This document shows, piece by piece, positions 2,627 to 55,809 of a stretch of 64,000 nucleotides of DNA. Source of the DNA: Acidimicrobiales bacterium (GTDB lineage: Bacteria; Actinomycetota; Acidimicrobiia; Acidimicrobiales; DATDAH01); the NCBI GenBank assembly GCA_036525535.1, contig DATDAH010000244.1, positions 4,698 to 68,697 on the forward strand, in the 5' to 3' direction. Made by a program: the position numbers and the translations under genes. The notes below the pieces were generated by a model that did not search any database, was not told where the DNA came from, and saw only the letters and a program-made list of their open reading frames with translations. The stretch's first letter is position 1, and each line of letters begins with the position of its first letter.

Positions 2627-4267
2627 GTGAATCGACCGGCGGACCTCTCCTGGGGCGTCTTCAGCGACCGCGCCCCGTGGGTCCTGGCCGACGAACCGCA
2701 GGCCTGGCAAGCCCATCTCCACCTCGTCCGGGAGGCCACCCGCCGCTCCGCGCCCGAGCTGGCCCGGCCCCGCAAGGTGCCGCCGCTGGGCCGCCTGGCC
2801 ACCGTGACCCGCCACCTGGGCGTCGGCGTCGCCCGCTGGGCCGCCACCGACCGCCGCGACCCCGACCGCTCCGTCGCCGGGCTCTCGCTCCGCCTCCGCA
2901 TCGCCGCCGAGGCCCTCGGCCCCACCTACATCAAGCTGGGCCAGATCATCTCCTCCGGCGAGGGCATCTTCCCCGACGAGCTGGTCGACGAGTTCAAGCG
3001 CTGCCGTGACCGGGTCCGGGCCGAACCGTTCGCCGACGTCCGCCGGGTCGTCGAGGAGGACCTCGGTCGCCCGCTCGAAGCCGTGTTCGCCGCCTTCGAC
3101 CGCGAGCCCCTGGCCGCCGCCTCGATCGCCCAGGTCCACGCCGCCACCCTGCGCAGCGGCGAGTCGGTCGTGGTCAAGGTGCAGCGCCCCCAGGTCGCGA
3201 CCCTGGTCCAGGAGGACCTGCGGGTCATGGCCTGGTTGGCCCCCCTGTTCGTCGGCCGCATCCCGGTCGCCGCCCTGGCCAACCCACCGGCCCTGGTCGA
3301 GCTCTTCGCCGAGACCATCGTGGAGGAGCTGGACTTCCGCCTCGAGGCCGAGAACATGCTCGACGTCTCCCGTTCGATGCGCGAGCTCGGCCAGCAGGCC
3401 TACGTCATCCCCCGCCCCCACCCGGAGTTGGTGACCCGCCGGGTCCTGGTGATGGAGCGCCTGTCGGGCTTCGCCCTCGACGAGGTCGATGCCATGAAGG
3501 CGGCCGGCGTCGACCTGATGGCCCTCATCCGCACCGGGATCATCGGCTTCCTCGAGGGGGCCATGTTCCACGGCGTCTTCCACGGCGACCTTCACGGCGG
3601 CAACCTCTTCGTCCAACCCGACGGCCGCACCGCGCTGCTCGACTTCGGCATCACCGGTCGGCTCGACGAACCACGGCGCCTGGCCTTCCTCAAGCTGCTC
3701 GCCGGCGGCAGCACCAATGACGTCCGGGTCCAGCTCCCCGCCCTGGCCGAGCTGGGCGCCCTGCCGCTGGACACCGACTTCGAGGCCCTCATCGCCGAGC
3801 TCGGCCTGGACGCCCCCGCCGTCGACCCCACCCAGATGGATCCCGACGAGATGGTGGGCGAGCTGCAGCGGGTGCTCAAGGCGCTGCTCGGCTACGGCGC
3901 CCGCATGCCCAAGGAGCTGATGCTTTTCGTCAAGAACATGGCCTTCAGCACCTCGATGGGCCAGACCCTGGCCCCCGACCTGGACATCCTCGAGCTGATC
4001 CAGCAGGTGATCGTCCACTTCGCGACCACCCACGGCGAGCGCATCGCCGCCGACCTCCAGCAGGAGTACGACCCCGACGCCTACCTGGCCGAGGTGAGCT
4101 TGGACGGCTACCGGGCCTCGCTCGGCATGCCCGACGCCGAAGCCATCACGCTGGCCGAGCTCCAGGCGCGCCGCCGCCTCATCCGTGACCGCCTCTCCAA
4201 GCGAAGCCGCAAAGGCGGCACCCATTACACGCCAACTGGCCCGGAAAAGGACCCCGTGGGAAGATGA
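2627..4267 (+). CDS. ABC1/UbiB (AarF) atypical kinase family protein
   Basis: 546-aa ORF with family signatures [46 protein letters not shown] and LLDFGITG. Its stop overlaps the cysD start (ATGA at 4264-4267). Confidence 0.85.
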
Positions 4268-10997: not shown

Positions 10998-11840
10998 TCA
11001 GTCGGTGAACTCGCACTTCCCGGCGTCGAGGACCACACGGCCGTCGTCACCGGTGGTCTGGAAGACGGCCTCGCCACCGTCCACCCACATGTTCACCGTG
11101 AGCGGCTCGCCGGGGAACACCGGCGAGGAGAAGCGCCCGTCCATCGACGTGAAGCGGGACGGCTCACCGTCACACAGCGTGTGCAGGAGCGCCCGGCCGG
11201 TGAAGCCGAAGGTGCACAGGCCGTGCAGGATCGGCCGGTCGAAGCCGGCCAGGGCGGCGAACTGCGGATCGGAGTGCAGCGGGTTGCGGTCGCCGGACAG
11301 CCGATAGATCAGGGCCTGGTCCGGACGGGTGGCGTAGGTGACCGAGTGGTCCGGTGCCCGCTCGGGCGGCACGTTCTGGGGTCCCGACGGCCCCCGATCG
11401 CCGCCGAAACCACCCTCACCCCGGATGAAGGCCGACATGGTCGTGTCGAACAGCGGCTCGCCGGTCGCGGCGACCTTGGCCTTGGACTCCATGACCACGA
11501 CCGCGCCCTTGCCCTTGTCGAAGATCCCGGTGATCTCGGTGGTGCAGGACAACGTGCCGCTGACCGGGATGGGCTGGTGGAGACGGACGCCCTGCTCGCC
11601 GTGCACGAGCATCGCCCAGTTGAAGTCGCCCAGGCTCGCCATGCCTCCGCCGATCACCCCGAGGACCACGGCCATCGTCGGGAAGACCTTCTGGTCGACG
11701 TCGATGGAGTTCTCGGTGACGAAGGGGAGCTCGTCGGTGCCGGCGCCCACGCCGAGGGCGTAGAGGATGGCGTCCTTGGAGTCCCAGGACATCTCGGTCG
11801 GGTCCGTGACGGTCCCGACGGCATCGAGGTTGAGCGGCAT
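10998..11840 (-). CDS. MaoC-family (R)-specific enoyl-CoA hydratase, double hot-dog
   Basis: 280 aa with the hydratase-2 motif YRLSGDRNPLHSDPQFAALAGF in the C-terminal half. Confidence 0.85.
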   Translation of the reverse strand: MPLNLDAVGTVTDPTEMSWDSKDAILYALGVGAGTDELPFVTENSIDVDQKVFPTMAVVLGVIGGGMASLGDFNWAMLVHGEQGVRLHQPIPVSGTLSCTTEITGIFDKGKGAVVVMESKAKVAATGEPLFDTTMSAFIRGEGGFGGDRGPSGPQNVPPERAPDHSVTYATRPDQALIYRLSGDRNPLHSDPQFAALAGFDRPILHGLCTFGFTGRALLHTLCDGEPSRFTSMDGRFSSPVFPGEPLTVNMWVDGGEAVFQTTGDDGRVVLDAGKCEFTD

Positions 11841-11849
11841 CGAGGTCTC

Positions 11850-12752
11850 CTAGTGCTTGTCGTTGCCGAACATGTCGGCGTTGGGGCGGGCCTTGGCCAT
11901 GAGCTCGGCCACCTTGGCGCCGATCTCGGTGGGGTCGTCGGTGGGCTCCACCGTGGGGCCCTTGTGCCAGCCCTCGGCCACCGCCAGCTCGCGGCCGGAC
12001 ACCTGGAAGACACGACCGGTCACGTCGGCGGACTCGGGACTGGCCAGCCACGTCACGATCGGGGCGATCCAGTGGGGAGCCATGGAGGCCTTGGTCTCCT
12101 CGTCGAGCTGGCCCATGCCGAGGTTCTCGGTCATGCGGGTGATCGCCCCCGGGGCGATGGCGTTGGCCGTGACGCCGTACCGCTCGAGCTCGATCGCGGT
12201 GATGACGGTGAAGGCGGCGATGCCGGCCTTCGCCGCGCCGTAGTTGGTCTGACCGGCGTTGCCGTAGATGCCCGACGGTGACGTCGTGTTGATGATGCGG
12301 GCGTCGACGGTCTCGCCCGCCTTGACCAGCTGCCGCCAGTGGGCCGCGGCGTGGCGGGTGGGCCCGAACGTGCCCTTGAGGTGCACGGCGATGACGGCGT
12401 CCCACTCCCCCTCGGCCATGTTCACCAGCATCCGGTCCCGCAGGATCCCGGCGTTGTTGATGAGCACGTCGAGGCGGCCGAAGTGGTCGATGGCCTGCTG
12501 GATCATCTCACCCGAAGCGTCGAAGTCGGCGACGTTGGCCCCGTTGGCCACGGCCTCGCCGCCCATGGCCTCGATCTCGGCCACGACCGCCTGGGCCGGG
12601 GTGGCGTCCTCGCCCTCCCCGGTCATGTCCCCGCCGAGGTCGTTGACGACGATCTTGGCGCCCTGGTCGGCCAGCATCAGGGCGTACTCCCGCCCGATGC
12701 CCCGGCCGGCGCCGGTGATCACACAGACCCGACCTTCACAGATCCCGCTCAT
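11850..12752 (-). CDS. SDR family oxidoreductase (MFE-2-type 3-hydroxyacyl-CoA dehydrogenase-like)
   Basis: Contains ITGAGRGIG, NNAGILRD and NYGAAKAG (YxxxK). The start is trimmed to MSGICEG at 12752. It lies 9 nt upstream of the MaoC gene. Confidence 0.8.
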   Translation of the reverse strand: MSGICEGRVCVITGAGRGIGREYALMLADQGAKIVVNDLGGDMTGEGEDATPAQAVVAEIEAMGGEAVANGANVADFDASGEMIQQAIDHFGRLDVLINNAGILRDRMLVNMAEGEWDAVIAVHLKGTFGPTRHAAAHWRQLVKAGETVDARIINTTSPSGIYGNAGQTNYGAAKAGIAAFTVITAIELERYGVTANAIAPGAITRMTENLGMGQLDEETKASMAPHWIAPIVTWLASPESADVTGRVFQVSGRELAVAEGWHKGPTVEPTDDPTEIGAKVAELMAKARPNADMFGNDKH

Positions 12753-14584: not shown

Positions 14585-15982
14585 GTGACCGACGAGCACC
14601 TCGATTTCCAGCCCCGCATGAGCGACGCCGACAAGCTCATGTGGACCATCGAGCGGGATCCGCTGCTCCGGAGCACGATCACCTCGGTCGTCGTCCTCGA
14701 CGGTCCCCCCGACCACGACCGCCTGAAGGACAAGGTGGAGCGGGCCAGCCGAACCGTCATCCGCCTGCGCCAGCGGGTGATCGGCAACGCCCTGTCCTTC
14801 TCGCCGCCCCGCTGGGAGGTCGATCCCAACTTCGACCTCGACTACCACCTGCGCTTCGTGAAGGCGGCCAACGACGGCAGCATGCGCGAGCTGTTCGACA
14901 TCGCCGAGCCCATCGGCATGCAGGCCTTCGACCGGGCCCGGCCGCTGTGGGAGTTCACCGTGGTCGAGGGCCTCGAGGAGGGCCGAGCCGGGCTGATCAT
15001 GAAGATCCACCACGCGGTGACCGACGGCGTGGGCGGCGTGAAGTTGATGCTGGAGACCTTCGACGCCGAGACCGACCCCGGCGAGCCCGGCGATCTGCCC
15101 GAGGCACCGGCCGTCCACGTCATGGGCCAGGCCGAGCGCTTCGCCGACGCCGTGGCCCACGAGCAGCGACGGGTCATGGGGGTGGCCAAGCGCTCCTTCG
15201 GCACGCTCTCCACGGCCGCGCTGGTCACCGTCGCCGACCCGGTCGGCGCCGGGGCCCGGGTGAGTGAGACGGTCGCGTCCGCTCTCCGGTTGCTGGCGCC
15301 CGCCAGCGAGCCCCTGTCCCCGCTGATGACCGAGCGCTCCCTGTCGGTGCAGTTCCACACCCTGACGGTCCCCCTGGCCGAGATGAAGATCGCCGGTCGG
15401 CGAGCGGGCGGCAAGCTCAATGACGCCTTCGTGGCCGCCATCGCCTCGGGCTGGCGCCGCTACCACGACCACCACGGCAAACCCGCCGGTGCGCTGCGGA
15501 TGTCCATGCCGATCAGCGTGCGCACCGCGGCGACCGAGAACGTGGCCGGGAACCAGTTCGCGCCGGCCCGCTTCCCCGTTCCCCTGACGGTGGTCGATCC
15601 CGTCCACCGGATGAAGGTGGTGCGGGACCTCGTCGGGCGGGCTCGGGCCGAGCCTGCGCTGGCCTTGACCGAGCCCTTGGCCAACCTGCTCAACCACCTG
15701 CCCCCGGACGTGACGACCGGCATCTTCGGCTCGATGCTGCGGGGGGTGGACTTCGTGACCTCGAACGTCCCCGGCCCACCCTTCCCGATCTACCTGAGCG
15801 GGGCCCGGGTGATCAGCCAGTTCCCCTTCGGGCCCATGGCCGGTGCCGCCGCCAACATCACCCTGCTCAGCTACGTCGACGACCTGAACATCGGCATCAA
15901 CACCGATCCCTCCGCCGTCCCCGACCCCGAGACGTTGGTCGAGTGCATGCAGGAAGGCTTCGACGAGATCCTCAAGTGCTAG
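14585..15982 (+). CDS. wax ester synthase/diacylglycerol acyltransferase (WS/DGAT) family protein
   Basis: 465 aa with the HHAVTDGVGG active-site motif and RPLWEF. Confidence 0.85.
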   Translation: MTDEHLDFQPRMSDADKLMWTIERDPLLRSTITSVVVLDGPPDHDRLKDKVERASRTVIRLRQRVIGNALSFSPPRWEVDPNFDLDYHLRFVKAANDGSMRELFDIAEPIGMQAFDRARPLWEFTVVEGLEEGRAGLIMKIHHAVTDGVGGVKLMLETFDAETDPGEPGDLPEAPAVHVMGQAERFADAVAHEQRRVMGVAKRSFGTLSTAALVTVADPVGAGARVSETVASALRLLAPASEPLSPLMTERSLSVQFHTLTVPLAEMKIAGRRAGGKLNDAFVAAIASGWRRYHDHHGKPAGALRMSMPISVRTAATENVAGNQFAPARFPVPLTVVDPVHRMKVVRDLVGRARAEPALALTEPLANLLNHLPPDVTTGIFGSMLRGVDFVTSNVPGPPFPIYLSGARVISQFPFGPMAGAAANITLLSYVDDLNIGINTDPSAVPDPETLVECMQEGFDEILKC

Positions 15983-15989
15983 TCACACG

Positions 15990-16056
15990 TGACCGGCTTC
16001 GCTTCGCTCAGCAAGTCCGGCTCCGCCGATCGCCGAACGATGACGGCGCTGCTCCG
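15990..16056 (+). repeat. dispersed intergenic repeat, copy A (blocks 1 and 2)
   Basis: Block 1 is TGACCGGCTTCGCTTCGCTCAGCAAGTCCGGCTCC (31/35 identical to copy C). Block 2 is GGCTCCGCCGATCG-N15-GCTGCTCCG, with the same spacing as copy D. Confidence 0.7.
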
Positions 16057-16116
16057 GCTGGCGCCTGCGCAGCCTGACGCCTCCCGGCGTCGGTTCGCCG
16101 CGCTCGAGCGCTCGCA

Positions 16117-17151
16117 CTACGCGGTCCAGTCCTTCAGCTGGCTGACGATCTCGGTGGCGTTGCCGATGGGCTGGATGTTGAGCATGGTCACGCCTGACTC
16201 GCGGTAGGCGGCCAGGCGCTCCTTCACATAGCCCTCGTCGCCGCAGATGGTGGTGGCCTCGAGCAGGTCCTCGGGGATGACCGCGGCGGCCTCCTCCTTC
16301 TTGCCGTCGAGGTAGAGGTCCTGGATCTCCTTGGCCTCCTTCTCGAAGCCATACCGGCAGACCAGGTCGTTGTAGAAGTTCTTGCCCCGGGCGCCCATGC
16401 CGCCCACGTACAGGGCGACCATCGGACGGGCGAAGTCCCGGAAGCCCTTCACCTCGGCGGTCGGGCCGATGGCCACGAGACCACCGGCGACGACCTCCAG
16501 AGGGTCGAGGTCGTCGGACCGTTTGGCGGCACCCCGCGCCAGGTCGTCACCCCAGACATCCTCGGCCTTCTCGGGCAGGTAGAAGAGCGGGAGCCAGCCG
16601 TCGGCAATCTCGGCCGTCAACTCGACGTTCTTGGGCCCGAGGGCGGCGACGTGGATCGGGATGCGGTTCCGAACGGGGTGGGTGATCAGCTTCAGCGGCT
16701 TGCCCAGACCGGTGCCCTGCCCCTCTGGGAGGGGGATGGCGTAGGCCTTGCCCGAGAACTCGACCCGCTCCCGCTTCCAGACCTGGCGGCAGATCTCGAT
16801 GATCTCCCGCGTCCGGGTGAGCGGCTTGTCGTACGGCACACCGTGGAAGCCCTCGATGACCTGAGGCCCGGATGCGCCGAGGCCGAGCACGCAGCGACCG
16901 CCCGACAGGGCGTCGACCCCGGCCGCGGTCATGGCCAGGAGCGTCGGCGTGCGGGTGTAGAGGGGCAGGATCCCCGAGGCGATCTCGACCCGCTCGGTGA
17001 CCGCCGCGAGGTAACCCATGATGCTGACCGCGTCGACGCCGTACGCCTCGGCCACCCAGATGAGGTCGAGGCCGGCCGCCTCGAGGTCCACGGCCTGCTG
17101 GGCCACCTCGGCGGGCGAGACGTCGTAGCGGAGCTGGGTGCTGATCTTCAT
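16117..17151 (-). CDS. LLM class oxidoreductase, probably F420-dependent
   Basis: 344 aa from MKISTQLRYDVSPAEV..., with AAGLDLIWVAEAYGVDAVS and LGLGASGPQVIEGFHGVPY. The ORF-track N-terminal extension is R/P/G-rich and was discarded. Confidence 0.8.
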   Translation of the reverse strand: MKISTQLRYDVSPAEVAQQAVDLEAAGLDLIWVAEAYGVDAVSIMGYLAAVTERVEIASGILPLYTRTPTLLAMTAAGVDALSGGRCVLGLGASGPQVIEGFHGVPYDKPLTRTREIIEICRQVWKRERVEFSGKAYAIPLPEGQGTGLGKPLKLITHPVRNRIPIHVAALGPKNVELTAEIADGWLPLFYLPEKAEDVWGDDLARGAAKRSDDLDPLEVVAGGLVAIGPTAEVKGFRDFARPMVALYVGGMGARGKNFYNDLVCRYGFEKEAKEIQDLYLDGKKEEAAAVIPEDLLEATTICGDEGYVKERLAAYRESGVTMLNIQPIGNATEIVSQLKDWTA

Positions 17152-21756: not shown

Positions 21757-23178
21757 GTGCCCAGGACCCGGAGACGTCGTCGTTCCCTGGGCCCCCGTCT
21801 CGCCGTCACCCTCAACGTGGCCCTCGTCTTCGGCCTGCTCACGGCCGTGGGGGGCACGGGCTTCCTGTACCTGAAGCTCGACAAGATCCCTCGGCTCGAG
21901 CTCGGCGCCACCCTGGACGAGGCGCCGGGCGGCAATTCGGCCCAGAACTACCTGCTGGTCGGCACCGACAGCGCCGATCGTCTCGACCCCAACGACCCCG
22001 TCACCAACGGGCGCGAGGACCTCGGTGTCCTGTCGGACACGATCATGCTGCTGCGGGTCGACCCTGACGAGCCCCAGGCCCAGCTGCTGAGCTTTCCTCG
22101 CGACCTGTTCGTCTCCTTTCCCGGTGGGGGCGAAGGCAAGATCAACTCGGCTCTGGCCGTGGGCGGCCAGGAGGCCCTGATCGGCACGATCCAGGAGACC
22201 TTCGGCGTCCCGGTCCACCACTACCTCCAGGTCGACTTCCTCGGCTTCAAGGAACTGGTCCGGGCCATCGACGGGGTGCCGTTCTTCTTCAGCACCCCGG
22301 TGCGGGACACGACGACCGGCCTGTTCGTCGGCCACGGGGGCTGCAACACGCTGGGGCCGGACCAAGCCCTGGCCTACGCCCGGTCCCGCCACCTCGAGAC
22401 CCTCCAGAACGGCGAGTGGGTCACCGACTTCACCGCCGACCTGGGCCGCATCTCCCGCCAGCAGGACTTCATCCGCCGGGCGATCGCCCGCACGGTGACC
22501 CAGGGGGTGGCCAACCCGCTCCTCCTCGGGGACGTGTTCGACGTGGCCACCGACGCCGTGCAGATGGACAGCGACCTGGCCGTCGGCGACTTCGTGCAGC
22601 TGGGCCGCAAGTTCCGCGGGTTCAACGACTCGACGCTGCAGACCCTGACGCTGGACGTGACCAACGACAGCGTGAACGGGTCGTCCATCCTCCGGCTGCA
22701 GGACACCGCGGCCAACGACCGTCGCATCGGCATCTTCCGGGGCCAGGGTGGGGCCGGGGCCGACCAGGCGCCCACGATCAGCGTCGTGGTCCACAACGGC
22801 ACCGGTACCGACGGCCAGGCGGGCGAAGGGGCCGAGGGCCTCGACCGGCTGGGGTTCGACACCTCGCCGGGTACCGGCGACGCCGAGAACAGCGATTTCG
22901 GCCACAGCGTCGTCCGCTACAGCACCGACGACAACGAGGCCGAAGCCCGCTTCGTGGCCGCCCAGATCGAGGGTGGGGCCGACGTCGAGCAGGTCGACAG
23001 CATCGCCGCCGGGGCGGACGTCGAGGTCGTCACCGGCGCCGACTTCGACGGCATCAGCAGCGACCTCCAGCCTCCACCGCAGCCCCTGGGCGGCGCAGGC
23101 CGAGGCGGGGCCGGTGGTGGCACCGCGCCCGTCGGCCAGGTCCCCAGCGTCGACCCCCCGGAACGCGCCGCCTGCTGA
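21757..23178 (+). CDS. LytR-CpsA-Psr (LCP) family protein with LytR_C-like C-terminal domain
   Basis: Has an N-terminal TM span and the LCP core LLVGTDSADR...SDTIMLLRVDP...LSFPRDLFV...KINSALAVGG. A later repeat reads VVVHNGTGTDGQAG. Confidence 0.85.
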   Translation: MPRTRRRRRSLGPRLAVTLNVALVFGLLTAVGGTGFLYLKLDKIPRLELGATLDEAPGGNSAQNYLLVGTDSADRLDPNDPVTNGREDLGVLSDTIMLLRVDPDEPQAQLLSFPRDLFVSFPGGGEGKINSALAVGGQEALIGTIQETFGVPVHHYLQVDFLGFKELVRAIDGVPFFFSTPVRDTTTGLFVGHGGCNTLGPDQALAYARSRHLETLQNGEWVTDFTADLGRISRQQDFIRRAIARTVTQGVANPLLLGDVFDVATDAVQMDSDLAVGDFVQLGRKFRGFNDSTLQTLTLDVTNDSVNGSSILRLQDTAANDRRIGIFRGQGGAGADQAPTISVVVHNGTGTDGQAGEGAEGLDRLGFDTSPGTGDAENSDFGHSVVRYSTDDNEAEARFVAAQIEGGADVEQVDSIAAGADVEVVTGADFDGISSDLQPPPQPLGGAGRGGAGGGTAPVGQVPSVDPPERAAC

Positions 23179-23255
23179 TCGGTCGGGCCATGCCCCTCGT
23201 CGCCGCCCGCACGGCTCGTGCTGCCTACGGCAGCTTCCGACGAGCTTCTGCTGAG

Positions 23256-23276
23256 CTGCTTCGCTTCGGCTCCGCA
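23256..23276 (+). repeat. dispersed intergenic repeat, copy B (partial)
   Basis: GCTGCTTCGCTTCGGCTCCGC joins block 1 core GCTTCGCTTCG directly to block 2 start GGCTCCGC. The surrounding 60 nt carry five GCTTC pentamers. Confidence 0.5.
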
Positions 23277-23299
23277 GCGTTGCTTCGGGCTGAGGGACG

Positions 23300-24403
23300 T
23301 CAGTCCGGCATCAGATCCAGCGCGTCGAGGTCGAGGATGGCGCTGGCGGACCGGGTGAGCATGGCCTCGAAGAGGGCGCGGGCCCGGTCGTTGACCAGGT
23401 CCAGGGCACCGGCGTTGAGCGGGTAGCAGGCGCAGAAGAGGATGCCCAGGCGGTAGTCGTCCCAGCACTGCTCGTAGCTGTAGTCCTCTACCCCGCCCGC
23501 CTTGAGGGCCTGGTGATAGGCCCGCAGCACCTGCTCGTCGGCCCCCTTGCGGTCCTCGGGGCTGAGGCTCTGGCTCATGAAGTAGGCGATGTCGTAGGGC
23601 GCCCGGCCCAGGCCGCAGATCTGCCAGTCGACGGCCACCACCGGATCCTCGGCGCCGGGATCGAAGAAGAGGTTGTCCAACCGGTAGTCCCCGTGGAGCA
23701 GGGTCATCGGGGGCTCGGACAGGCGCTCCAGCAGCTCGACGCACACGTCGGGCATGCGCCGGGCGGCGTCGAGCATCGGCCCCGGCAGGAGGTGGGCGAA
23801 CTCCGACTCGATCAGGGGCCAGGACTGGCGCAGGGTCGGCGGCAGGGCCTGCGGGTTGGGCGGGTCACAGGTCCGCACCGTCCAGTCGGCGTCGATGATG
23901 TCGCTGTCGTTCCAGTACCAGGCGTGGTGGGCGGCCAGCTCCTTGGCCGCGATCAGCGCCTGCTCCACCGAGCAGCCGTCGAGCTGGTCGAACTGGGTCC
24001 GGTCCCCGAGGTCCTCCAGCAGGAGCAGGAAGTCCTTCGTGGAGGTGTCGTAGCCGGAGGCATAGAGCGCGGCGGTGCCCAGCGGGGTCCGCGGCCCGGC
24101 GTCGCGGTAGAAGTTCACCTCGCGCCCGTAGAAGTTGAAGGCGTCGGCGGTCTGCCGGGCGCCGGCGACGGTGTGGGGGAGCTTGAGGACGGCGGTGGCC
24201 GGTCCCTCACCCCCGTCGTAGGCCAGCTCCACCCGCCAGAGCAGGGACAGGATCCCCATGCCGACGCCGATCGGGGTGGCGGACGCCGCGGTGACCGTCG
24301 TGCTCTGGTCGATGGTGCCCGACGAGCGCAGCGCAGCCGTGTACCAGTCCGGCGTCAACTCGTCCGGCGACGCCGGGTACCCCAGATCCGCGGAATCCCC
24401 CAT
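23300..24403 (-). CDS. phosphotransferase (APH/choline-kinase-like) family protein
   Basis: 367 aa with the catalytic loop LLHGDYRLDNLFF and the DWQICGLG motif. Confidence 0.8.
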   Translation of the reverse strand: MGDSADLGYPASPDELTPDWYTAALRSSGTIDQSTTVTAASATPIGVGMGILSLLWRVELAYDGGEGPATAVLKLPHTVAGARQTADAFNFYGREVNFYRDAGPRTPLGTAALYASGYDTSTKDFLLLLEDLGDRTQFDQLDGCSVEQALIAAKELAAHHAWYWNDSDIIDADWTVRTCDPPNPQALPPTLRQSWPLIESEFAHLLPGPMLDAARRMPDVCVELLERLSEPPMTLLHGDYRLDNLFFDPGAEDPVVAVDWQICGLGRAPYDIAYFMSQSLSPEDRKGADEQVLRAYHQALKAGGVEDYSYEQCWDDYRLGILFCACYPLNAGALDLVNDRARALFEAMLTRSASAILDLDALDLMPD

Positions 24404-24487: not shown

Positions 24488-25387
24488 ATGGCTGACATCG
24501 GGTTCGACGGGAAGGTCGCGATCATCACCGGGGCGGGCGGAGGGCTCGGCTTCGAGCACGCCAAGCTGCTGGCCTCCCGGGGCGCGCAGATCGTCATCAA
24601 CGACCTCGGCGGATCGGTCTCCGGCGAGGGCGGCGACGAGAGCGCGGCGGAGTCGGCGGCCCGTCAGATCGAGGAGCTGGGCGGCGTCGCCGTGGCCAAC
24701 CACGACAGCGTGGCCACGCCCGAGGGCGGCGAGTCCATCGTGAACACGGCCATCGAGGCCTTCGGCCGGGTCGACATCGTGATCAACAACGCCGGGATCC
24801 TGCGGGACAAGGCGTTCCACAACATGACGCCCGACCTGGTCGACCCCGTCATCGACGTCCACCTGCGGGGGGCGTTCAACGTGACCCGGCCGGCGTGGAT
24901 CAAGATGCGGGAGCAGGGCTACGGCCGGGTGGTCAACACCGCGTCGACAGCCGGCATCATCGGCAACTTCGGCCAGGCCAACTACGGCGCGGCGAAGATG
25001 GGCCTCGTCGGCTTCACCCGGGTCCTCGCCGCCGAGGGCGCCCGCAGCAACATCAAGGCCAACGCCATCGCCCCGATCGCCAAGACCCGGATGACCGAGG
25101 ACCTGCTCGGGCCGATGGGCGACAACCTCGCCCCCGAGCTCATCTCCCCCGTGGTGGCCTGGCTGGCCCACGAGGACTGTCCCGTCACCGGCGAGATCTA
25201 CTCGTGTGGCGGCGGCATGGTCGCCCGCTTCTTCATCGGCCTGACCACTGGTATCTACGACCCCGAGCTGACCCTCGAAGGCATGCGCGATCAGTTCGAC
25301 ACGATCCGGGACGAGGACGGCTACATGGTCCCCACGGAGACCGGCGACGAGCTCCGCAAGCTGCTGGCCTACTTCAAAGGCGACTGA
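24488..25387 (+). CDS. SDR family oxidoreductase (MFE-2-type dehydrogenase-like, paralog of 11850-12752)
   Basis: The start is trimmed to MADIGFDGKVAIITGAGGGLG. It also contains NNAGILRD and NYGAAKMG. Confidence 0.8.
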   Translation: MADIGFDGKVAIITGAGGGLGFEHAKLLASRGAQIVINDLGGSVSGEGGDESAAESAARQIEELGGVAVANHDSVATPEGGESIVNTAIEAFGRVDIVINNAGILRDKAFHNMTPDLVDPVIDVHLRGAFNVTRPAWIKMREQGYGRVVNTASTAGIIGNFGQANYGAAKMGLVGFTRVLAAEGARSNIKANAIAPIAKTRMTEDLLGPMGDNLAPELISPVVAWLAHEDCPVTGEIYSCGGGMVARFFIGLTTGIYDPELTLEGMRDQFDTIRDEDGYMVPTETGDELRKLLAYFKGD

Positions 25388-25433: not shown

Positions 25434-25877
25434 GTGGAAGCCGCCGCTCTAGCGCCCGACCGCCTCGACGCGGTCCTGGCCACCCTCCCCCCTGACTGGG
25501 CGGTGGCCCAACTGGGTCGCGACCGCTTCGTGGCGGGCCCGGCCGGGGCCTTCGTCCTGCGGCCCTCGACCGGCGAGCACCACCGCGATGCCCGGCGGGT
25601 CACCCAGATCGCGCGGGCCACTCGCACCGGACTCAGCGACCACCTTGCCTGGATCCCGGTCATCGACGCCCTCGTGGTCACCCCGGAACGCATCCGCGAG
25701 CCCGTGGGTGCCACCGTCATCCCGGTCGGCATGGTCACCTCGCTGCTCCTCGAGGGGATGCAGCCCCTCGACCAGGAGACGCTGCGCCGCATCACCGGCC
25801 TCATGGTCGAGCGCCGCCTCACCCCCGAGTGGATTCCCTCCGCCCCCCAACCGAGCACGGTCCTGGCTCCTGATTGA
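25434..25877 (+). CDS. hypothetical protein, weak NERD-like pattern
   Basis: 147 aa. The segment RFVAGPAGAFVLRPS...ARATRTGLSDHLAWIPVIDALVV loosely resembles nuclease-related-domain proteins. The assignment is tentative. Confidence 0.45.
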   Translation: MEAAALAPDRLDAVLATLPPDWAVAQLGRDRFVAGPAGAFVLRPSTGEHHRDARRVTQIARATRTGLSDHLAWIPVIDALVVTPERIREPVGATVIPVGMVTSLLLEGMQPLDQETLRRITGLMVERRLTPEWIPSAPQPSTVLAPD

Positions 25878-25927
25878 GGCGCCCCGGGGTCACCGAGGCT
25901 GTCAGTGGGGGTGCGTAGGCTTCGGTC

Positions 25928-26779
25928 ATGGCATTGGAACCCCCAACCGGGCTCTCCCCCTCCCGGGTCTCGTCCTTCCAGGACTGCGCGCTGGCGTTCC
26001 GGTTCTCGGCCATCGACCACCTGCCCGAGCCCTCCTCGCTGCCCGCCGTGCGGGGCACGTTGGTCCACGCCGCGCTCGAGCGGCTCTTCGACCTCACCCC
26101 GGCCGAGCGCACCCCCGAGCGGGCCACGGCCTGCCTGACCGAGGCCCACGCCGTCATCCAGGCCGACCCCGAGTACCTCGGCCTCGGCCTCGACGACGAA
26201 GGTGACCTCGCCCTGCGGGTCCGGTCCCAGGAGCTGCTGGACAACTACTTCCGTCTCGAGGACCCGGCCACCATCACCCCCATCGGCCTCGAGCTGCGGC
26301 TGGAGGCCCCCCTCGGCGATCTCAACCTGCGGGGCATCATCGACCGCCTCGAACTGGACGCCGAGGGCGGCCTGGTCGTCACCGACTACAAGACCGGGGC
26401 CGCCCCCCGCCAGCAGTTCGAACAGGGCCGTCTCGGCGGGGTCCACTTCTACGCCTTTCTCTGCGAGGAGGTGTTCGGGCAACGGCCGGCGAAGGTCCAA
26501 CTCCTCTACTTGGCCGACCCCGTGGCCATCGTGGCCGAGCCCACCGATCAGGCCAGTCGCGGCCTACGCCGCAAGCTGACGGCGGTCTGGGCGGCCATCG
26601 AGCGGTCCTGTGAACGCGAGGACTTCCGGCCCCGACCCTCCAAGCTGTGTGACTGGTGCGCCTTCCAGACCCACTGCCCGGCCTTCGGGGGCGACCCCGA
26701 CGCGGCCCGTCGGGACGCGGCGGCGACGGCCCTGAAGGCGACGCCGATCGACCTGAGGCCGGTCGCCCTAGCGGGGTGA
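25928..26779 (+). CDS. PD-(D/E)XK nuclease family protein (RecB/Cas4-like with Cys cluster)
   Basis: 283 aa with the nuclease core [21 protein letters not shown]. One N-terminal Cys (FQDCALAF) plus the C-terminal [10 protein letters not shown] fit a Cas4/AddB-type 4-Cys arrangement. Confidence 0.8.
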
Positions 26780-27963: not shown

Positions 27964-29361
27964 ATGGCGGAGCGCGAACTGCGGTCGGACCCGCGCATGA
28001 CCGACCTCGAGGCCCTCATGTGGAACCTCGACAAGGACCCCCACCTCACCTCGGTCTTCGCCAACGTCACCGTCCTGGACTGCGCTCCCGACCGGGAGTA
28101 CCTGCGGCGCAAGCTGGGGCGGGCCGTCCAGGACATCCCCCGCCTGCGCCAGCGGGTGGTCCCCGCGTTCGGCCGTCTCGCCCCGCCCACGTGGGAGGAG
28201 GACGAGGCCTTCGACCTCGACTACCACCTGAGCTGGACCGGCCTGCCCAAGCCCGGCGACCAGCGAGCCCTGCTCGAGCTGTCCACCCGGATCCACCAGC
28301 AGCCCTTCGAACGGGGACGGCCGCTGTGGGAGTTCGTCGTCGTCGACGGGCTCTCTGGCGGGAGAGCGGCCATGGTCCAGAAGCTGCACCACACCATCAC
28401 CGACGGGGTGGGCGGCCTCCGCCTGGCCGAGCGCTTCCTCGACCTCGAGCGGTCACCGCTCGAGCCCGACCCCGTCGAGCCCGTCGCCTCTCGGTCCCCC
28501 GCCTTCACCGGCCCCAAGCTGGTCGGCCGGGCGCTGGGCACCGCCGGCCACCTCACCAAGCAGGCCGCCAACACGACCGTTGATGTGGCCAAGGGGGCCG
28601 GCGGCACGCTCGTCCACCCCGATCGGTGGCCGTCGAGGCTCGTCGAGGCGGGCGAGACCGTGCGCTCCGTGGTCCGGCAGGTCGTGGGTACGAGCGAAGC
28701 CCGGTCTCCGCTGTGGACGGAGCGCTCCCTGTGGCGGGAGCTGGTCGTGCTCCGCGTCCCCTTCGACGACGTGAAGGAGGCGGCGACCAAGCACGGCGTG
28801 ACCGTCAACGACCTGTTCGTCACCGCCGCGGCCCGGGCGTCCGGCACCGTTCACCGACGGGTCGGCCAGCCCGTGGAGGAACTGCGCATGGCGATGCCCA
28901 TGAGCACCCGGGACGACAAGTCCGCGGCCGGCAATGCCTTCTCGCTGACCCGGAGCCTGGTGCCCACCGACATCGACGACCCGATCGAGCACCTGCTCGC
29001 CGTCCACGAGGTCCTGGCCGCGACCCGGGGCGAGAAGGCCTTCCAGGTCCTGGACCAGTTGGCTGGGGCCATGAACCTGCTGCCGACGTCAGCTCTCGTG
29101 GCCGCCGCCCGGCACCAGGCGGAGACCGTCGACTTCACGACGTCGAACCTGCGGGGCGCGCCCTTCCCGCTCTTCTTCGGGGGGGCGCAGATCGTGGAGA
29201 ACTATCCGGTCGGGCCGCTGGCCGGGACGGCGTTCAACCTGACGGTGCTCAGCTACGCCGGGGAGCTGCACCTCGGTCTGCTGGCCGACAGCGCGGCGAT
29301 CGCCGACCCGGAGGCGCTGCGGGACGCGTTGGCAGACGCGTTCGAGGACTTGACGACCTGA
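27964..29361 (+). CDS. WS/DGAT family acyltransferase (second paralog)
   Basis: 465 aa with HHTITDGVGG and RPLWEF. It is colinear with the 14585-15982 product. Confidence 0.85.
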   Translation: MAERELRSDPRMTDLEALMWNLDKDPHLTSVFANVTVLDCAPDREYLRRKLGRAVQDIPRLRQRVVPAFGRLAPPTWEEDEAFDLDYHLSWTGLPKPGDQRALLELSTRIHQQPFERGRPLWEFVVVDGLSGGRAAMVQKLHHTITDGVGGLRLAERFLDLERSPLEPDPVEPVASRSPAFTGPKLVGRALGTAGHLTKQAANTTVDVAKGAGGTLVHPDRWPSRLVEAGETVRSVVRQVVGTSEARSPLWTERSLWRELVVLRVPFDDVKEAATKHGVTVNDLFVTAAARASGTVHRRVGQPVEELRMAMPMSTRDDKSAAGNAFSLTRSLVPTDIDDPIEHLLAVHEVLAATRGEKAFQVLDQLAGAMNLLPTSALVAAARHQAETVDFTTSNLRGAPFPLFFGGAQIVENYPVGPLAGTAFNLTVLSYAGELHLGLLADSAAIADPEALRDALADAFEDLTT

Positions 29362-49121: not shown

Positions 49122-50360
49122 TCAGCTGACCCGGTCGAGGGGGAGGAGCTCGTGCTCGCCGGTCTCCTCGTCGAGGGTGAACCGCCAACCGAGGCGCTCG
49201 GCCATGAGGCCGCGACCCTCGTCGGGGCCGGTGACGATGAGCTCGTCACCGGCCTCGAGTTGGACGTACCGGCGGGGTTGGTAGCGGTAGCGGCCGTCCC
49301 GCTGGATGGCCAGGATCTGGAAGCCGGGCTCGATCTCCAGCTCCAGCTCGCTGAGCTTGGCCCCGTCGGCGGCCGAGCCCTGGGCCACCGGGATGCGGAG
49401 CACCACCTCGTCGCTCTCGCCGAGGGCGATGCCGAGGATCGGGTGGATCTCCTCGCCGTGCTCGATGAGCCAGACCATCTGCTGGGCCTGGTCACCGATG
49501 TCCTCGGCGGCCTGGGACAGAGCCAGCAGGCCCCGTAGGGGTGACGGGTCGATGTCGGGCGCGGCGGCCCGCAGGACCCACACCTCGAGGCGGTCCTTCA
49601 TCTCGTCCAGCCGGTCCTCCAGGTGGCGGACCTCCATGGCCAGGCTGCGGTCGCCGAGCACGAGGGCCGAGTACGCCAGGCCGACGGCGGCCTCGGAGAT
49701 GTTCTTCATCTCCACGAGCGTGTCCACGGCCCGGTCGAGGTCGGTGAGCACGGCGCCGTCGGGCACCATCGCCGGCGCCCAGGCCGACGCCCCGGCCAGC
49801 TCCCGGAGACGGGTGATTCCGGCCGGCGACCCCTCGCAGAAGAGCACGTCGCCGGGGAGGATGACCTGGTCGCCGCGGATCTCGTCGATGATCCATTCCC
49901 GGCCCCGGCGGATGGCCATGATGCGCATGCCCGTGGCCACCGGCAGCTCCAGGGCGGCCAGCGGTCGGTGGGCCATGTGCGACCCCTCCCGGATGAGGAC
50001 GCGGTGGGCCACCTCTTCGGCCTCGGACAGGTCGGCCACCAGCTCCCGGGGGATGCCCAGGCGGTGGGTGACGATGCGGGCGATGTTGGCGGCGGCGTTG
50101 GCGATGCGTTCGATGGCGCTGATGACCTGCAACACGGAGGCCATCTCGTCGGCCTCGCTCGGCTTGCGGGCCGCCAGGATGCACACGGCCCGCATCTCGT
50201 GGACGAGGTCGTTCATCTGGTCTTCGAGCTCGTCGACCTCCTCGGCCATGTCCGGGTCGCCGAAGTAGACCGACGCGTAGGCCAGGTCGAGCATCAGCTC
50301 GGACGCGTCCTTGGCCTCCGTGAGCATCGAGCGGAGGTTCCTGGGCTTGTCGTCCATCAC
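49122..50360 (-). CDS. tandem PhoU-like / TrkA-C (RCK_C) domain protein
   Basis: 412 aa made of two consecutive PhoU-like-helical plus TrkA-C units. The first is ...LDLAYASVYFGDPDMAEEV... + ...MRIMAIRRGREWIIDEIRGDQVILPGDVLF.... The second is ...GLAYSALVLGDRSLAMEV... + ...FQILAIQRDGRYRYQPRRYVQLEAGDELIV.... Confidence 0.7.
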   Translation of the reverse strand: MMDDKPRNLRSMLTEAKDASELMLDLAYASVYFGDPDMAEEVDELEDQMNDLVHEMRAVCILAARKPSEADEMASVLQVISAIERIANAAANIARIVTHRLGIPRELVADLSEAEEVAHRVLIREGSHMAHRPLAALELPVATGMRIMAIRRGREWIIDEIRGDQVILPGDVLFCEGSPAGITRLRELAGASAWAPAMVPDGAVLTDLDRAVDTLVEMKNISEAAVGLAYSALVLGDRSLAMEVRHLEDRLDEMKDRLEVWVLRAAAPDIDPSPLRGLLALSQAAEDIGDQAQQMVWLIEHGEEIHPILGIALGESDEVVLRIPVAQGSAADGAKLSELELEIEPGFQILAIQRDGRYRYQPRRYVQLEAGDELIVTGPDEGRGLMAERLGWRFTLDEETGEHELLPLDRVS

Positions 50361-50375
50361 ATTCCGCCGTACTCC

Positions 50376-50421
50376 GTCCGGCCGGCTCCGCCGATCGGGT
50401 CCGGTCGTCGGAGCTGCTCCG
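50376..50421 (+). repeat. dispersed intergenic repeat, copy D (block 2)
   Basis: GTCCGG..GGCTCCGCCGATCG (50384-50397), then N15, then GCTGCTCCG (50413-50421). The spacing is identical to copy A (16019-16056). Confidence 0.6.
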
Positions 50422-50486
50422 CGAGGCTGCGCCGCGTCATTGCCTCAGGGTAGGTGGTCTTTCAGCCGGAGTACCCCGCCCGCGGG

Positions 50487-53340: not shown

Positions 53341-54045
53341 GTGGTGGTGTGGCTCATGTTGGTCGGCTTCGTGGCCTTCGGCGTCATGACGACGGTCGCG
53401 TTCAAACGCAAGGCCGACCGCAACGGGGACCTGCAGAAGCTGGCCGCGGCCAACGGCTTCGTCTACACCGAGGAGGACTGGTTCGCCTCCACCCGGGTGC
53501 CCTTCCAGATCTTCCGCCTCGGGAACCGCTCGATGGTCGAGAACATGATCGTCGGCCAGTCCGCCGACGGCGCCCCCGTCCGCCTCTTCGACTTGACCAC
53601 CTGGGACGAGAAGCAGACCGAGGACGGGACCCAGGAGAGCCACTACCGGTACATGACCTGCTGCCTGACCGAGACCGACCACGCCTTCCCGCACCTGGTC
53701 GTGCAGCCCGACACCGTGGCCACCCGCCTGCTCGAGAAGGTCGGGATGCCGTCGATCGACCTGGAGTCCGAGGCGTTCAACCGTCGCTTCATGGTCACCT
53801 CCGAGGACGAGCGCTTCGCCCGGATGTTCCTCGACCCCCAGATGATGGAGCTGCTGCTGTCAACCGACGGCCAGTTCCAGTTCGAGGTGCGGGGGCGCTG
53901 GGTCCTGGTCGCCGCCCCTCAGCTCCCGGCCGAGCTGTGCTTGTCGCTGGTCGGGCTGTCGAACCGCTTCCGGGAGTTGATCCCGCCCGTCGTGCGGGAG
54001 TTCCATCCGGATTTGCCCGACATCGTCGAACCGAGGCCCCGATGA
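53341..54045 (+). CDS. DUF3137-like membrane protein (LemA partner)
   Basis: AAGGAG lies upstream of a GTG triplet run at 53341-53349. It has an N-terminal TM span (WLMLVGFVAFGVMTTVAF), then ...FNRRFMVTSEDERFARMFLDPQMMELLL.... An ATGA overlap links it to lemA. Confidence 0.6.
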   Translation: MVVWLMLVGFVAFGVMTTVAFKRKADRNGDLQKLAAANGFVYTEEDWFASTRVPFQIFRLGNRSMVENMIVGQSADGAPVRLFDLTTWDEKQTEDGTQESHYRYMTCCLTETDHAFPHLVVQPDTVATRLLEKVGMPSIDLESEAFNRRFMVTSEDERFARMFLDPQMMELLLSTDGQFQFEVRGRWVLVAAPQLPAELCLSLVGLSNRFRELIPPVVREFHPDLPDIVEPRPR

Positions 54046-54638
54046 GCGTGACCCTGGTCGTGCTGGTCGGCAGCGGCGTGGTGCTGGTCGGCTGGATCTG
54101 GGCCTCCTACAACCGCTTCGCGCTGCAGCGGGAGATGGTGGAGAACTCCTGGTCCACCGTCGACACCGAGCTGCGGCGGCGCTACGACCTCATCCCGAAC
54201 CTGGTCGCCACCGTGAAGGGTTACGCCGCCCACGAGCGCGAGACGCTGGAAACCGTGGTCGAGGCCCGGAGCCAGGCCGTCGCCGCCACTGGGGCCCCGG
54301 AGGAGCAGGCCCCTGCCGAAAATCTGCTGGTGGACGGGCTGAAGCAGCTGTTCGCCGTGGCTGAGGCCTACCCCGACCTGAAGGCCGACGTCCACTTCCT
54401 GGAGCTCCAGAAGGAGCTGGCCGCCACCGAGAACCGCATCCAGGCCGCCCGGCGCATCTTCAACGGCAACGTCCGGGACCTCAACCGGCGCGTTCAGCAG
54501 GTGCCGTCGAACCTCGTCGCCAAGGTCGGTGGCTTCCACCGGGCCGAGTACTTCCAGATCGACGCCGCCGCCCGCGCGGTGCCCGTCGCGTCGCTGGCGC
54601 CGGACCTGCCGAGCGAAGCGAAGCCAGTCAAAAGTTGA
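54042..54638 (+). CDS. lemA: LemA family protein
   Basis: 198 aa with an N-terminal TM span and the LemA core YNRFALQREMVENSWSTVDTELRRRYDLIPNLV...AENRIQAARRIFN. Confidence 0.8.
   Translation: MSVTLVVLVGSGVVLVGWIWASYNRFALQREMVENSWSTVDTELRRRYDLIPNLVATVKGYAAHERETLETVVEARSQAVAATGAPEEQAPAENLLVDGLKQLFAVAEAYPDLKADVHFLELQKELAATENRIQAARRIFNGNVRDLNRRVQQVPSNLVAKVGGFHRAEYFQIDAAARAVPVASLAPDLPSEAKPVKS
54596..54630 (-). repeat. dispersed intergenic repeat, copy C (block 1)
   Basis: The reverse complement TGACTGGCTTCGCTTCGCTCGGCAGGTCCGGCGCC is 31/35 identical to copy A. It begins at the TGA of the minus-strand ACAD gene and lies inside the 3' tail of the lemA ORF. Confidence 0.7.
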
Positions 54639-55809
54639 TCGGGTTCCCGTCGCGGGACTGTTTGAGGATGCGTCTCGCGACCGTGTGGACGTGGACCTCG
54701 TCGGGGCCGTCGTAGATCCGGGCGAAGCGGGCCGAGCGGTACATGAAGCTGAGCGGCGTGTCGTCGGTCAGGCCCTTGGCCCCGTGGGCCTGGATCGCCC
54801 GGTCGATGACGTTGTGCAGCATCCGGGCCCCGACCACCTTGATGGTGCCGATCTCCACCCGGGCCTGGTCGCCGGCGTCGATGCGCTCCGCGGCCTGGAG
54901 GGTGAGCAGGCGGCAGGCCTGGATCTCGGCGTAGGACTCGAACACGTGCTGCTGCATGAGCTGCTTGTGCGACAGCGGTTCGCCGAAGGCCACCCGCGCG
55001 TTCAGCCGCTCGCAGAGCAGCTCGAAGGCCCGCTGGGCCTGCCCCAGCCACCGCATGCAGTGGAAGATCCGCCCGGGGCCCAGCCGGTCCTGGGCGATCT
55101 GGAAGCCGTGCCCCCGGGGGCCGAGGAGGTTGCCGGCCGGCACCCGCACGTCGGTGTAGCGGACCTCGCAGTGCCCACCCTTGATGCCCAACACCGGCGT
55201 CTCCCTGACGATCTGGTAGCCAGACGTGTCGGTCGGGACCACGATCATCGAGAAGGCGCGGTGGTCCGGGGCGTCGGGCTCGGTCCGGCACATGACCGTC
55301 GTGTAGGCCGCCCGGTTGGCCCCCGTCGTGAACCACTTCAGGCCGTTGATGACCCACTCCTCGCCGTCGAGCACGGCGGCGGTCTGGAGCTGGGTGGGAT
55401 CCGACGACGCCACCTCGGGCTCCGTCATGGCGAAGCTGGGCGAGATCTCGGCCGCCACCAGGGGGGCGAGGTAGCGCTCCCGCCACTCGGGGCTGGCGTA
55501 CTTGTCCAGCATCAGGGAGTCCTGGAGGGTGAAGGTGCCGAGGGCGAGCTGGCCGAACTCGCTGCGGCCCTGGACCTCGTTGACGTAGACGTAGTCCAGG
55601 AAGGGCAGGCCCCCGCCGCCCAGCTCGGCCGGGTGCCCGAGGGCCCACAGGCCCTCGGCCTTGGCCTCGGCCTGCAGTTCCCGCAGCAGGTCGCGGGCGG
55701 CCTCGTCGCCGGCGTGGAGCTCCGGTTCGGCGGGCTCGACCCGCTCCCGCATGAACGCCTCCACGGCCGCTCGCACCGGCCGCACATGTTCGGGCACCTC
55801 GAAGCTCAT
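54628..55809 (-). CDS. acyl-CoA dehydrogenase family protein
   Basis: The start is trimmed to MSFEVPEHVRPV. It contains AMTEPEVASSDPTQL and C-terminal IYDGPDEVHVHTVARRIL. GGAGGAG lies just upstream. Confidence 0.85.
   Translation of the reverse strand: MSFEVPEHVRPVRAAVEAFMRERVEPAEPELHAGDEAARDLLRELQAEAKAEGLWALGHPAELGGGGLPFLDYVYVNEVQGRSEFGQLALGTFTLQDSLMLDKYASPEWRERYLAPLVAAEISPSFAMTEPEVASSDPTQLQTAAVLDGEEWVINGLKWFTTGANRAAYTTVMCRTEPDAPDHRAFSMIVVPTDTSGYQIVRETPVLGIKGGHCEVRYTDVRVPAGNLLGPRGHGFQIAQDRLGPGRIFHCMRWLGQAQRAFELLCERLNARVAFGEPLSHKQLMQQHVFESYAEIQACRLLTLQAAERIDAGDQARVEIGTIKVVGARMLHNVIDRAIQAHGAKGLTDDTPLSFMYRSARFARIYDGPDEVHVHTVARRILKQSRDGNPINF

Follow-up and report, generated by a model that had tools for sequence, protein, structure and literature searches.

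Short interspersed repeats at the borders of genes have been described in several bacterial groups. Systems of the REP-associated tyrosine transposase (RAYT), which accompany the repetitive extragenic palindromes (REPs), have to our knowledge been described mainly from Proteobacteria. Correia elements carry inverted ends and a TA duplication, and the Rickettsia palindromic elements (RPEs) are inserted in frame inside genes. Among the actinobacteria, the mycobacterial interspersed repetitive units (MIRUs), credited to Supply et al. in 1997, are reportedly intergenic repeats of 40-100 bp with ends that overlap the flanking stop and start codons; they lie inside operons in the sense direction, contain small open reading frames (ORFs) and form variable tandem arrays. 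The 'Tuberculosis Rho-independent terminator' (TRIT) is a dispersed, strongly conserved hairpin motif at Mycobacterium gene termini; it keeps a very narrow distance to the stop codon, often overlaps the end of the coding sequence, lacks a classical U-tail and is suspected to be bound by a factor (Gardner et al. 2011; PMC3152330). Here, a repeat element at 15983-16077 (+ strand) is described in a 64,000-nucleotide stretch of DNA from an Acidimicrobiales bacterium (GenBank assembly GCA_036525535.1, contig DATDAH010000244.1, positions 4,698 to 68,697; G+C content 71%), hereafter referred to as the window. The element belongs to a previously undescribed repeat family of uncultured soil actinobacteria, which represents a known kind of bacterial repeat; the existence and the anatomy of the family are near certain. 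The favoured reading, held at a probability of roughly 0.7, is that of a ~92-nt non-autonomous interspersed repeat, similar in kind to REPs, miniature inverted-repeat transposable elements (MITEs) and TRIT, and so far specific to the Microthrixaceae (Acidimicrobiia, Actinomycetota).

An initial annotation, made from the sequence of the window, had proposed a dispersed intergenic repeat family of at least four copies (A to D) built around GCTTCGCTTCG. All the sequences that it quoted are present where it had placed them, and the identity of 31/35 that it gave for copy A (15990-16024, +) and the reverse complement of copy C (54596-54630) was reproduced. BLAST with a 151-nt query finds this match at 29/32 (E=7e-6), and in an all-against-all search of the window it ranks sixth (E=0.003); the five matches above it represent two paralogous gene pairs, and A-C is the best match outside paralogs. 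The 15-mer GGCTTCGCTTCGCTC occurs exactly twice in the window and, with up to two mismatches allowed, has three matches against 0.24 expected, a count reached by none of 100 shuffles. Compared pairwise within the window, the 16-mer common to A and D, the 11-mer of copy B and the 11-mer at 4199 are no better than dozens of chance matches; on the window sequence alone, A-C is the sole convincing pair. A covariance model (R1) was built from 23 copies, 22 of them external and the other being copy A. Searched with filters off, the window yields matches to A, D, C and B only, the next scoring 16.8 bits and the remainder 13.3 bits and below, and 68.6 kb of related Acidimicrobiia DNA without the element yields nothing above 13.4 bits. 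The proposal of a dispersed family, represented in the window by four copies or more, is upheld by this recovery and by about 30 external copies, whereas the weak partial copy that had been suggested at 4199-4208 is a chance match (E=1.7, no R1 match). The two paralogous pairs (12150-12676 versus 24567-25075, inverted, and 14761-14956 versus 28140-28335) are diverged, give the strongest internal matches of the window and, judged by synteny matches, correspond to short-chain dehydrogenase-like and WS/DGAT genes.

The external copies were obtained by two scans. In the first, one genome per species was searched for GGCTTCGCTTCGCTCNGCA; it returned at least 120 stretches, six of which resemble copy A well beyond the pattern, all six being from three species of metagenome-assembled genomes (MAGs) labelled 'uncultured Microthrixaceae'. 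These six and copy A have in common the leader, AGTC, CGGC-NNN-GCCG and the 3' block GCTGCTCCGCTCCG(A)CTGCGCAGC. Metagenomes scanned with CTTCGCTCNGCANNNCCGGCNNCGCC contributed about 20 further copies, two of them on one 7.9-kb contig. The search of genomes for further copies that had been suggested at the outset thus brought the total outside the window to about 30, in public genomes and metagenomes and at unrelated loci (numbered with the prefix L below); among the matches listed, the copies assigned to a genome lie only in the Microthrixaceae MAGs (three species). Strains near-identical to the source, present in soil metagenomes, carry both A and C, with one polymorphism within the core of A (GGCTTCACTTCG). 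No match to the element was found on viral contigs, and full-text literature searches for 12-14-mers returned unrelated primers only. Rfam, which the initial annotation had suggested searching, contains no matching family: no match reached the gathering thresholds, either in the window or in 10 loci, and when copy A was searched by E-value the best sub-threshold match was to an unrelated eukaryotic family (E=0.17).

The consensus is about 92 nt long and reads T[C/G]AC-A-YYY-GACT-GGCTTCGCTTCGCTCAGCA-AGTC-CGGC-NNN-GCCG in its 5' part, with a leader of 7-8 nt between T[C/G]AC and the first hairpin, followed by a variable stretch of the AGCTGAGGGTC or TCGTGGAGCGTC type and then by GCTGCTCCGCTCCGCTGCGCAGC-S-T[C/G]A. 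Copy A (15983-16077, +) is full-length, matches R1 with 80 bits (E=1e-15, model positions 1-91; nhmmer E=2e-16) and starts one base after the TAG stop of a WS/DGAT gene. Its hairpin 1 (15990-16017) has the outer stem GACC/AGTC and the apical module GGCTTCGCTTCGCTCAGCA at 15995-16013; hairpin 2 (16018-16028) is CGGC-TCC-GCCG; and the 3' block (16048-16077), conserved in the alignments as GCTGCTCCGCTCCGCTGCGCAGC, forms a GCTGC...GCAGC stem followed by CTGA. The repeat drawn earlier at 35 nt is real but covers the whole of 15983-16077. The core GCTTCGCTTCG, around which it was said to be built, forms the tip of one hairpin out of three; D, B and two copies at L204 have it in diverged form or not at all. 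The GGCTCCGCCGATCG-N15-GCTGCTCCG block had rightly been joined to A, being part of the same ~92-nt unit in the external copies. Outside the columns fixed by the scan patterns, identity is 78-97% between orthologs and 60-75% between paralogs of the same MAG. The whole unit is directly duplicated in tandem at L174 (817-1001, period 99 nt) and L175 (814-976, period 78 nt), while the orthologs of these sites (L048 and L185) have one copy; after MurA, for instance, L048 has a single copy and L174 a tandem pair, which shows a change of copy number by slippage or unequal exchange. The 3' part GCTCCGCTCCG..CTGCGCAGC (16048-16073) resembles the core GCTTCGCTTCG..CTCAGC (15996-16013) in the manner of a direct copy that has diverged by T-to-C change, and the unit may, to judge from this resemblance, have begun as an internal duplication.

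The folding of hairpin 1 was assessed with RNAalifold and explicit pair counting on the 23 copies and with minimum free energy (MFE) folds of both strands. The paired pattern is GACT.GCT..GC...GC..AGC.AGTC, and the compensatory changes that the initial annotation had proposed to look for with a covariance model are present in its outer stem, where the double changes are AU:16/CG:4, CG:14/GC:8 and UA:15/CG:1; an inner pair shows UA:21/CG:1 (T-A to C-G in L195). Pairing is seen in 95.4% of the hairpin 1 cells; the figure is 90.9% in shuffles, of which 0/500 attain the observed value, and 16-49% with slid partners. Few cells are informative on the strand of action through G.U versus C.A mismatches. 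Hairpin 2, in which 97.8% of cells are paired, does not vary in its stem, and its 3-nt loop is free (GCC, TCC, GGC, GTC and GAC are seen); the GCTGC/GCAGC stem is uninformative either way because it never varies. The MFE folds give the same topology of hairpin 1 from either strand, with RNA energies of -10.4 kcal/mol for the reverse strand and -7.7 kcal/mol for the forward strand. The reverse strand of the tip contains two overlapping GCGAAGC heptamers, and GCGAAGC is known as a DNA mini-hairpin with a Tm of 76.5 C (PMC13037366). A different helix, in which the 3' half of the core would pair with the sequence following hairpin 2, was rejected, with only 78% of cells pairing and little covariation. 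The covarying stem also bears on the possibility that the copies are duplex-DNA binding sites of a nucleoid or topology factor, like the bacterial interspersed mosaic elements bound by integration host factor and gyrase, the palindromic pieces being the recognition sites. Several conserved DNA palindromes (CTGCGCAG and CGGCGCCG-like) and the occurrence of both orientations relative to transcription agree with such a role, but a stem with halves 19 nt apart is more in keeping with a folded single strand than with a site on duplex DNA and no candidate protein was identified, and this explanation is considered improbable.

The other three copies of the window represent different states of the repeat. 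Copy D (50357-50439, +; R1 42.6 bits, E=1e-7) is full-length and degenerate; it retains the leader TCACATTC, hairpin 2 and the 3' block, and its hairpin 1 core (GCTTCGCTTCG) has been replaced; its assignment to the family stands. Its first base overlaps the start codon of a PhoU/TrkA_C gene (- strand), and an ortholog is present in L075 (MFD02242 MAG; 1725-1807, 40.4 bits), the regions being ~93-95% identical in the printed alignment. Copy B (23201-23282, +; R1 25.6 bits, E=5e-4) lies where two convergent genes, with stops at 23176-23178 and 23300-23302, leave a gap of 121 nt, and contains a CTGCC-TAC-GGCAG hairpin and the 3' block GCTGCTTCGCTTCGGCTCCGCAGCGT. A 24-bit R1 match in L206 falls inside an SLH-domain gene and is probably a false positive; copy B is therefore borderline by its R1 score alone, and scores near 25 bits need independent support. 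Copy B has such support in L204 (2700-2815), an intergenic sequence that is non-orthologous to the B site, is ~65-70% identical to B over ~90 nt in the printed alignment and, like B, has the 3' block of the main family. On the basis of this alignment, we take copy B to be a diverged subfamily of the element. The two sequences of this low-copy B type (window 23196-23300 and L204 2700-2815) lie at the 3' ends of two non-orthologous genes, each site being empty in the other genome.

Copy C (54596-54632, -; R1 42.2 bits) is a 5' fragment with the leader, hairpin 1 and the start of hairpin 2; the R1 match spans 54637-54560, and nhmmer aligns model positions 2-50 (E=1e-7). As noted earlier, the copy starts at a TGA, which is the stop of an acyl-CoA dehydrogenase (ACAD) gene (54628-55809, -) and at the same time the TGA of the element's TTGAC. 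The placement of copies 3' of genes holds, but the label 'intergenic' does not apply to copy C, which falls within the final 12-14 codons of a convergent gene, LemA (54042-54638, +; PF04011), as gene callers and Pfam confirm, and whose reverse strand encodes the LemA tail ..PDLPSEAKPVKS (54596-54638, +; longer form ..APDLPSEAKPVKS). In L075 and L144, LemA ends in ..AVPVA* before a full-length element. Relative to the full copy in L075, copy C has lost ~73 nt including the ancestral LemA stop, and the gene in the window consequently now ends inside the repeat remnant; copy C is a deletion remnant turned into coding sequence, namely the last ~12 residues of LemA. These facts dispose of the suggestion that the A-C similarity reflects chance or a shared coding tail (reverse-strand peptide PDL.SEAKPV), for which it could be said that C lies within LemA, that the reverse strand of A would read EPDLLSEAKPVTCD* and that the all-against-all E-value is only 0.003. 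With LemA stopping before a full, non-coding element in the close relative L075, many unrelated flanking genes, length differences that are not multiples of three and ~30 external copies, that explanation is already refuted and has next to no probability. A coding tail on the reverse strand was likewise dropped as a general property of the element on the evidence of L075, and so was a small forward ORF (MTGFASLSKSG...), since several copies have no NTG start (ACTCGAC, ATTCGCG) and the copies differ in length by numbers other than multiples of three.

Presence and absence of the element at orthologous sites were found at four loci. The ACAD|LemA site contains the full element in L075 and L144, the remnant in the window and a 6-nt gap (TGA-CCGGGG-CTA) in L199, a syntenic relative with an ilvC 87% identical and no R1 match near ilvC. 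The site between ilvC and PhoU is filled in the window and L075 and has a 28-nt gap in L200; in L199, the place of copy D is taken by an MgtE-family gene (11199-12434), with ilvC on one side and the PhoU/TrkA_C gene on the other. Where the window carries the full-length copy A, half a copy is present in L204, and L205 shows a 64-nt spacer of unrelated sequence. A further full copy follows a 151-aa gene in L204, and the window (25848-25896) and L205 have short spacers without the element there. These comparisons show that the copies are old and mostly vertically inherited, with sites gained or lost during the divergence of a genus-level group. Both boundaries of the element carry T[C/G]AC; the variable base differs between left and right in the 3-4 filled/empty comparisons, so that the boundaries would probably not be a target duplication. 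The left tetranucleotide is already present at three empty sites, as TGAC in L199 (stop + C), as TGAC in L205 and as the reverse of GTGA in L200, where GTGA is a start codon + A.

The left end of the element thus lies on T[C/G]AC, often a TGA stop + C or the reverse of a GTG start + A, and as a consequence copies abut stops or starts and often fill convergent gaps. A confidently coding same-strand ORF has its stop at -10, -5, -2 or +5 of element position 1 in at least 13 copies; at these offsets the stop codon lies just before the element or within one of its two TGA motifs. The stop of a convergent gene is found 0-51 nt past the 3' end in ~10 copies, and many copies occupy the entire gap between convergent genes. 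The 5' end adjoins the start codon of an opposite-strand gene in D, L067, L156 and L185/L175. Counted by locus (23), the 5' end falls on a stop codon of the same strand in ~15 and on a start codon of the other strand in 4, the remaining 4 being unclear.

Such placement raises the alternative that the element is primarily a selected factor-dependent terminator or stabiliser of mRNA 3' ends, as in TRIT, that is, a sequence read by a protein, with mobility incidental or absent. The tight positioning at stops and between convergent genes, the same narrow stop-codon spacing in TRIT (PMC3152330), a tip better conserved in some copies (A 19/19, C 18/19) than the pattern-free columns (~60%) and the retention of orthologous copies across species are consistent with it. 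Even so, homology at unrelated loci would still need dispersal, sites are gained or lost between close relatives, copies have decayed (D, C and the half copy of L204), a U-tract is absent, the hairpins are of modest energy (-7.7 to -10.4 kcal/mol) and antisense copies lie just upstream of start codons (D, L067, L156, L185). As a full account of the element this explanation is doubtful, although the 3' untranslated region or terminator module named in the initial annotation survives as a plausible function. The small RNA family named there is not supported: the conserved sequence and hairpins are compatible with a small regulatory RNA gene, but no promoter-like or terminator-like site and no Rfam match were found, copies occur in both orientations relative to their neighbours, truncated or degenerate copies persist at conserved sites, and the left end overlaps upstream stop codons, by which a copy would belong to that mRNA. 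The chance that the copies are small RNA genes is accordingly put very low. A sigma-70 promoter starting from TTGACT was examined separately and rejected for want of a -10 match.

The third of the initial options, a REP/MITE-like repeat, is the best supported by the presence and absence at orthologous sites, the tandem and truncated copies and the covarying hairpin. Homology between copies at unrelated loci requires dispersal, and an origin of the family by dispersal is considered quite probable. The repeat spread to T[C/G]AC sites at many unrelated gene boundaries, and the copies were then inherited vertically and later duplicated in tandem, truncated or eroded. The spread may have occurred by a strand-specific single-strand mechanism of the HUH/Y1 type or a similar one, for which neither inverted ends nor target duplications would be needed; by analogy with known transposons, an HUH-type mechanism is suggested only tentatively. 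The element would be tolerated at the gene boundary and transcribed together with the upstream gene, and the most likely role of its hairpins, which start 0-10 nt past the stop codon, would be that of a barrier at the 3' end or of a signal for factor-dependent termination. A function at 3' ends is a plausible proposition, at somewhat less than even odds. In this connection, Liang, Rudd and Deutscher are said to have reported in 2015 that E. coli REPs at up to ~15 nt from the stop lower the expression of the upstream gene through ribosome stalling.

Several observations weigh against this account of dispersal and gene-end function. Both scan patterns required the core, and the invariance of the core (19-mer) in the alignments (A1 and A2) follows from that ascertainment; the leader and the 3' block constitute the unbiased evidence of homology because they lie outside both patterns. 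The junction comparisons comprise 3-4 loci at 80-88% identity, the sequence TGACCGG at the 'empty' ACAD site of L199 may be the scar of a deletion, and the 3-4 filled/empty comparisons showed no target duplication that was consistent. No transposase was present among the called genes of the fetched loci, and an inverted-repeat scan found internal palindromes only and no terminal inverted repeats. With regard to function, the orientation in co-directional gaps is ~4 sense to 3 antisense, a ratio that demonstrates no one-strand role at the RNA level; the folding energy of the whole spacer is ordinary for 71% GC (z = -0.27 and -1.28 versus shuffles); and there is no terminator-like site at 15800-16300 and no T run after any copy. 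On the matter of ascertainment, copies reached by synteny and not by pattern do differ in the tip (GGCTTCGCCGGCGTTCAGCA and GGCCTCGCAGCGCTCGGCA in L204, the replaced core in D), and the two synteny-found copies of L204 keep hairpin 1 despite their changed tips.

Copy A fills most of the 134-nt gap between the WS/DGAT gene upstream (14585-15982, +; PF03007, PF06974) and a convergent gene for an LLM/luciferase-like F420 oxidoreductase (16117-17151, -; PF00296). The GACGCC-tccc-GGCGTC hairpin (16076-16091) and the GCGCTCGAGCGC palindrome (16100-16111), which the initial annotation had listed with copy A, do exist and were recovered by the inverted-repeat scan, but they are specific to this locus, are absent from other copies and lie outside the family consensus. 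An exact 15-mer, CGCCGCGCTCGAGCG, overlapping this palindrome (16097-16111) recurs at 26068-26082 (E=0.007, 151-nt query), which may be due to chance. An ORF of 72 aa (15989-16207, +), with a GTG start within copy A and no Pfam match, has been called on ten public contigs; it overlaps the 3' end of the LLM gene by ~90 nt, and the call is almost certainly an artefact of the repeat.

The tip of hairpin 1 was also encountered in other phyla. The identical 19-mer GGCTTCGCTTCGCTCNGCA also sits at the hairpin tip in three or more further repeat families, for example at L097 (2214-2273), L140, L035 (1968-2182), L089 (2084-2333) and L021 (3868-3886). One is a proteobacterial and planctomycete REP-like family (..gttgGGCTTCGCTTCGCTCAGCAccaacctac; ending in CCAACCTAC) in which the stems GTTGG/CCAAC, GCTGG/CCAGC and GGTGG/CCACC covary; another, in Rhizobiales, reads ccttcgaGG...GCAcctcaggatgagg (flanks ccttcga...cctcaggatgagg); and a third, in Chloroflexota, is repeated in tandem every 77 nt in L089. 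None of these families was matched in Rfam. A perfect flanking stem of at least 4 bp is present in 63 of the 127 exact 19-mer matches against 15 with shuffled partners, and on the reverse strand the tip reads GCT-GA-GC-GAA-GC-GA-AGC, the overlapping GCGAAGC heptamers being bracketed by tandem G.A. The 19-mer caps at least four otherwise unrelated families in Pseudomonadota, Planctomycetota, Chloroflexota and Actinomycetota, with a separate covarying outer stem in each. That the 17-19 nt tip represents a shared functional module is a long shot. Were it so, the tip would point to a common reader, such as a widespread clade of single-strand DNA transposases or a universal host factor, or alternatively to strong convergent selection for an ultra-stable single-strand hairpin resistant to nucleases and to single-strand-binding protein; it is a lead to a possibly general mechanism of hairpin recognition.

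The family adds a well-defined interspersed repeat to the Acidimicrobiia, a lineage known almost only from MAGs, from which REP-like elements are not known to have been described. One repeat is caught here at each stage, as full, tandem, truncated and degenerate copies and as the coding tail of LemA. The covariance model can be used to mark gene ends, to correct spurious gene calls and to serve as a strain or lineage marker.

Compared with the known systems, the element is similar to the REP/REPIN-RAYT repeats of Enterobacteria and Pseudomonas in being a short extragenic hairpin repeat enriched 3' of genes and between convergent genes, in its vertically inherited populations with decay and in possessing the short imperfect palindrome of a REP, namely hairpin 1 with its covarying outer pairs. 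It differs from them in having no GTAG/CTAC at the hairpin foot (the 23-copy consensus has T[C/G]AC 8 nt upstream), in occurring as single units or direct tandem pairs (L174, L175) only, without the inverted doublets of REPINs, and in its ~92-nt unit with three hairpins. The terminal inverted repeats of MITEs are absent, as is the GC-rich hairpin followed by a U/T tract that marks an intrinsic terminator. With the palindrome-associated transposable elements (PATEs) derived from IS200/IS605 and other HUH single-strand transposons, the element has in common the lack of inverted ends and, as far as the 3-4 filled/empty comparisons go, of a consistent target duplication, a hairpin near each end and a fixed left-flank tetranucleotide pre-existing in empty sites; no TnpA or Y1 gene is linked to it, and the likeness is one of resemblance only. 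Like RPEs and Correia elements, it is a short repeat that can become coding sequence or supply a gene end (copy C, LemA), but its coding use arose by secondary deletion. As an actinobacterial intergenic repeat abutting stops and starts it recalls the MIRUs, from which it differs in being hairpin-based, commonest between convergent genes and devoid of a conserved ORF. With TRIT it shares the occurrence in Actinomycetota, a dispersed conserved hairpin at gene ends, the narrow stop spacing and the absence of a U-tail; TRIT, for which Mycobacterium is the only reported host, is a mostly bidirectional palindrome, whereas the present element is asymmetric with distinct 5' and 3' halves, and the likeness is one of description. 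By analogy, TRIT and MIRU appear to be its closest functional counterparts. The parallel in stop-codon spacing with mycobacterial TRIT suggests that sequence-specific hairpin repeats at gene ends may be common in the actinobacteria, which are poor in canonical terminators.

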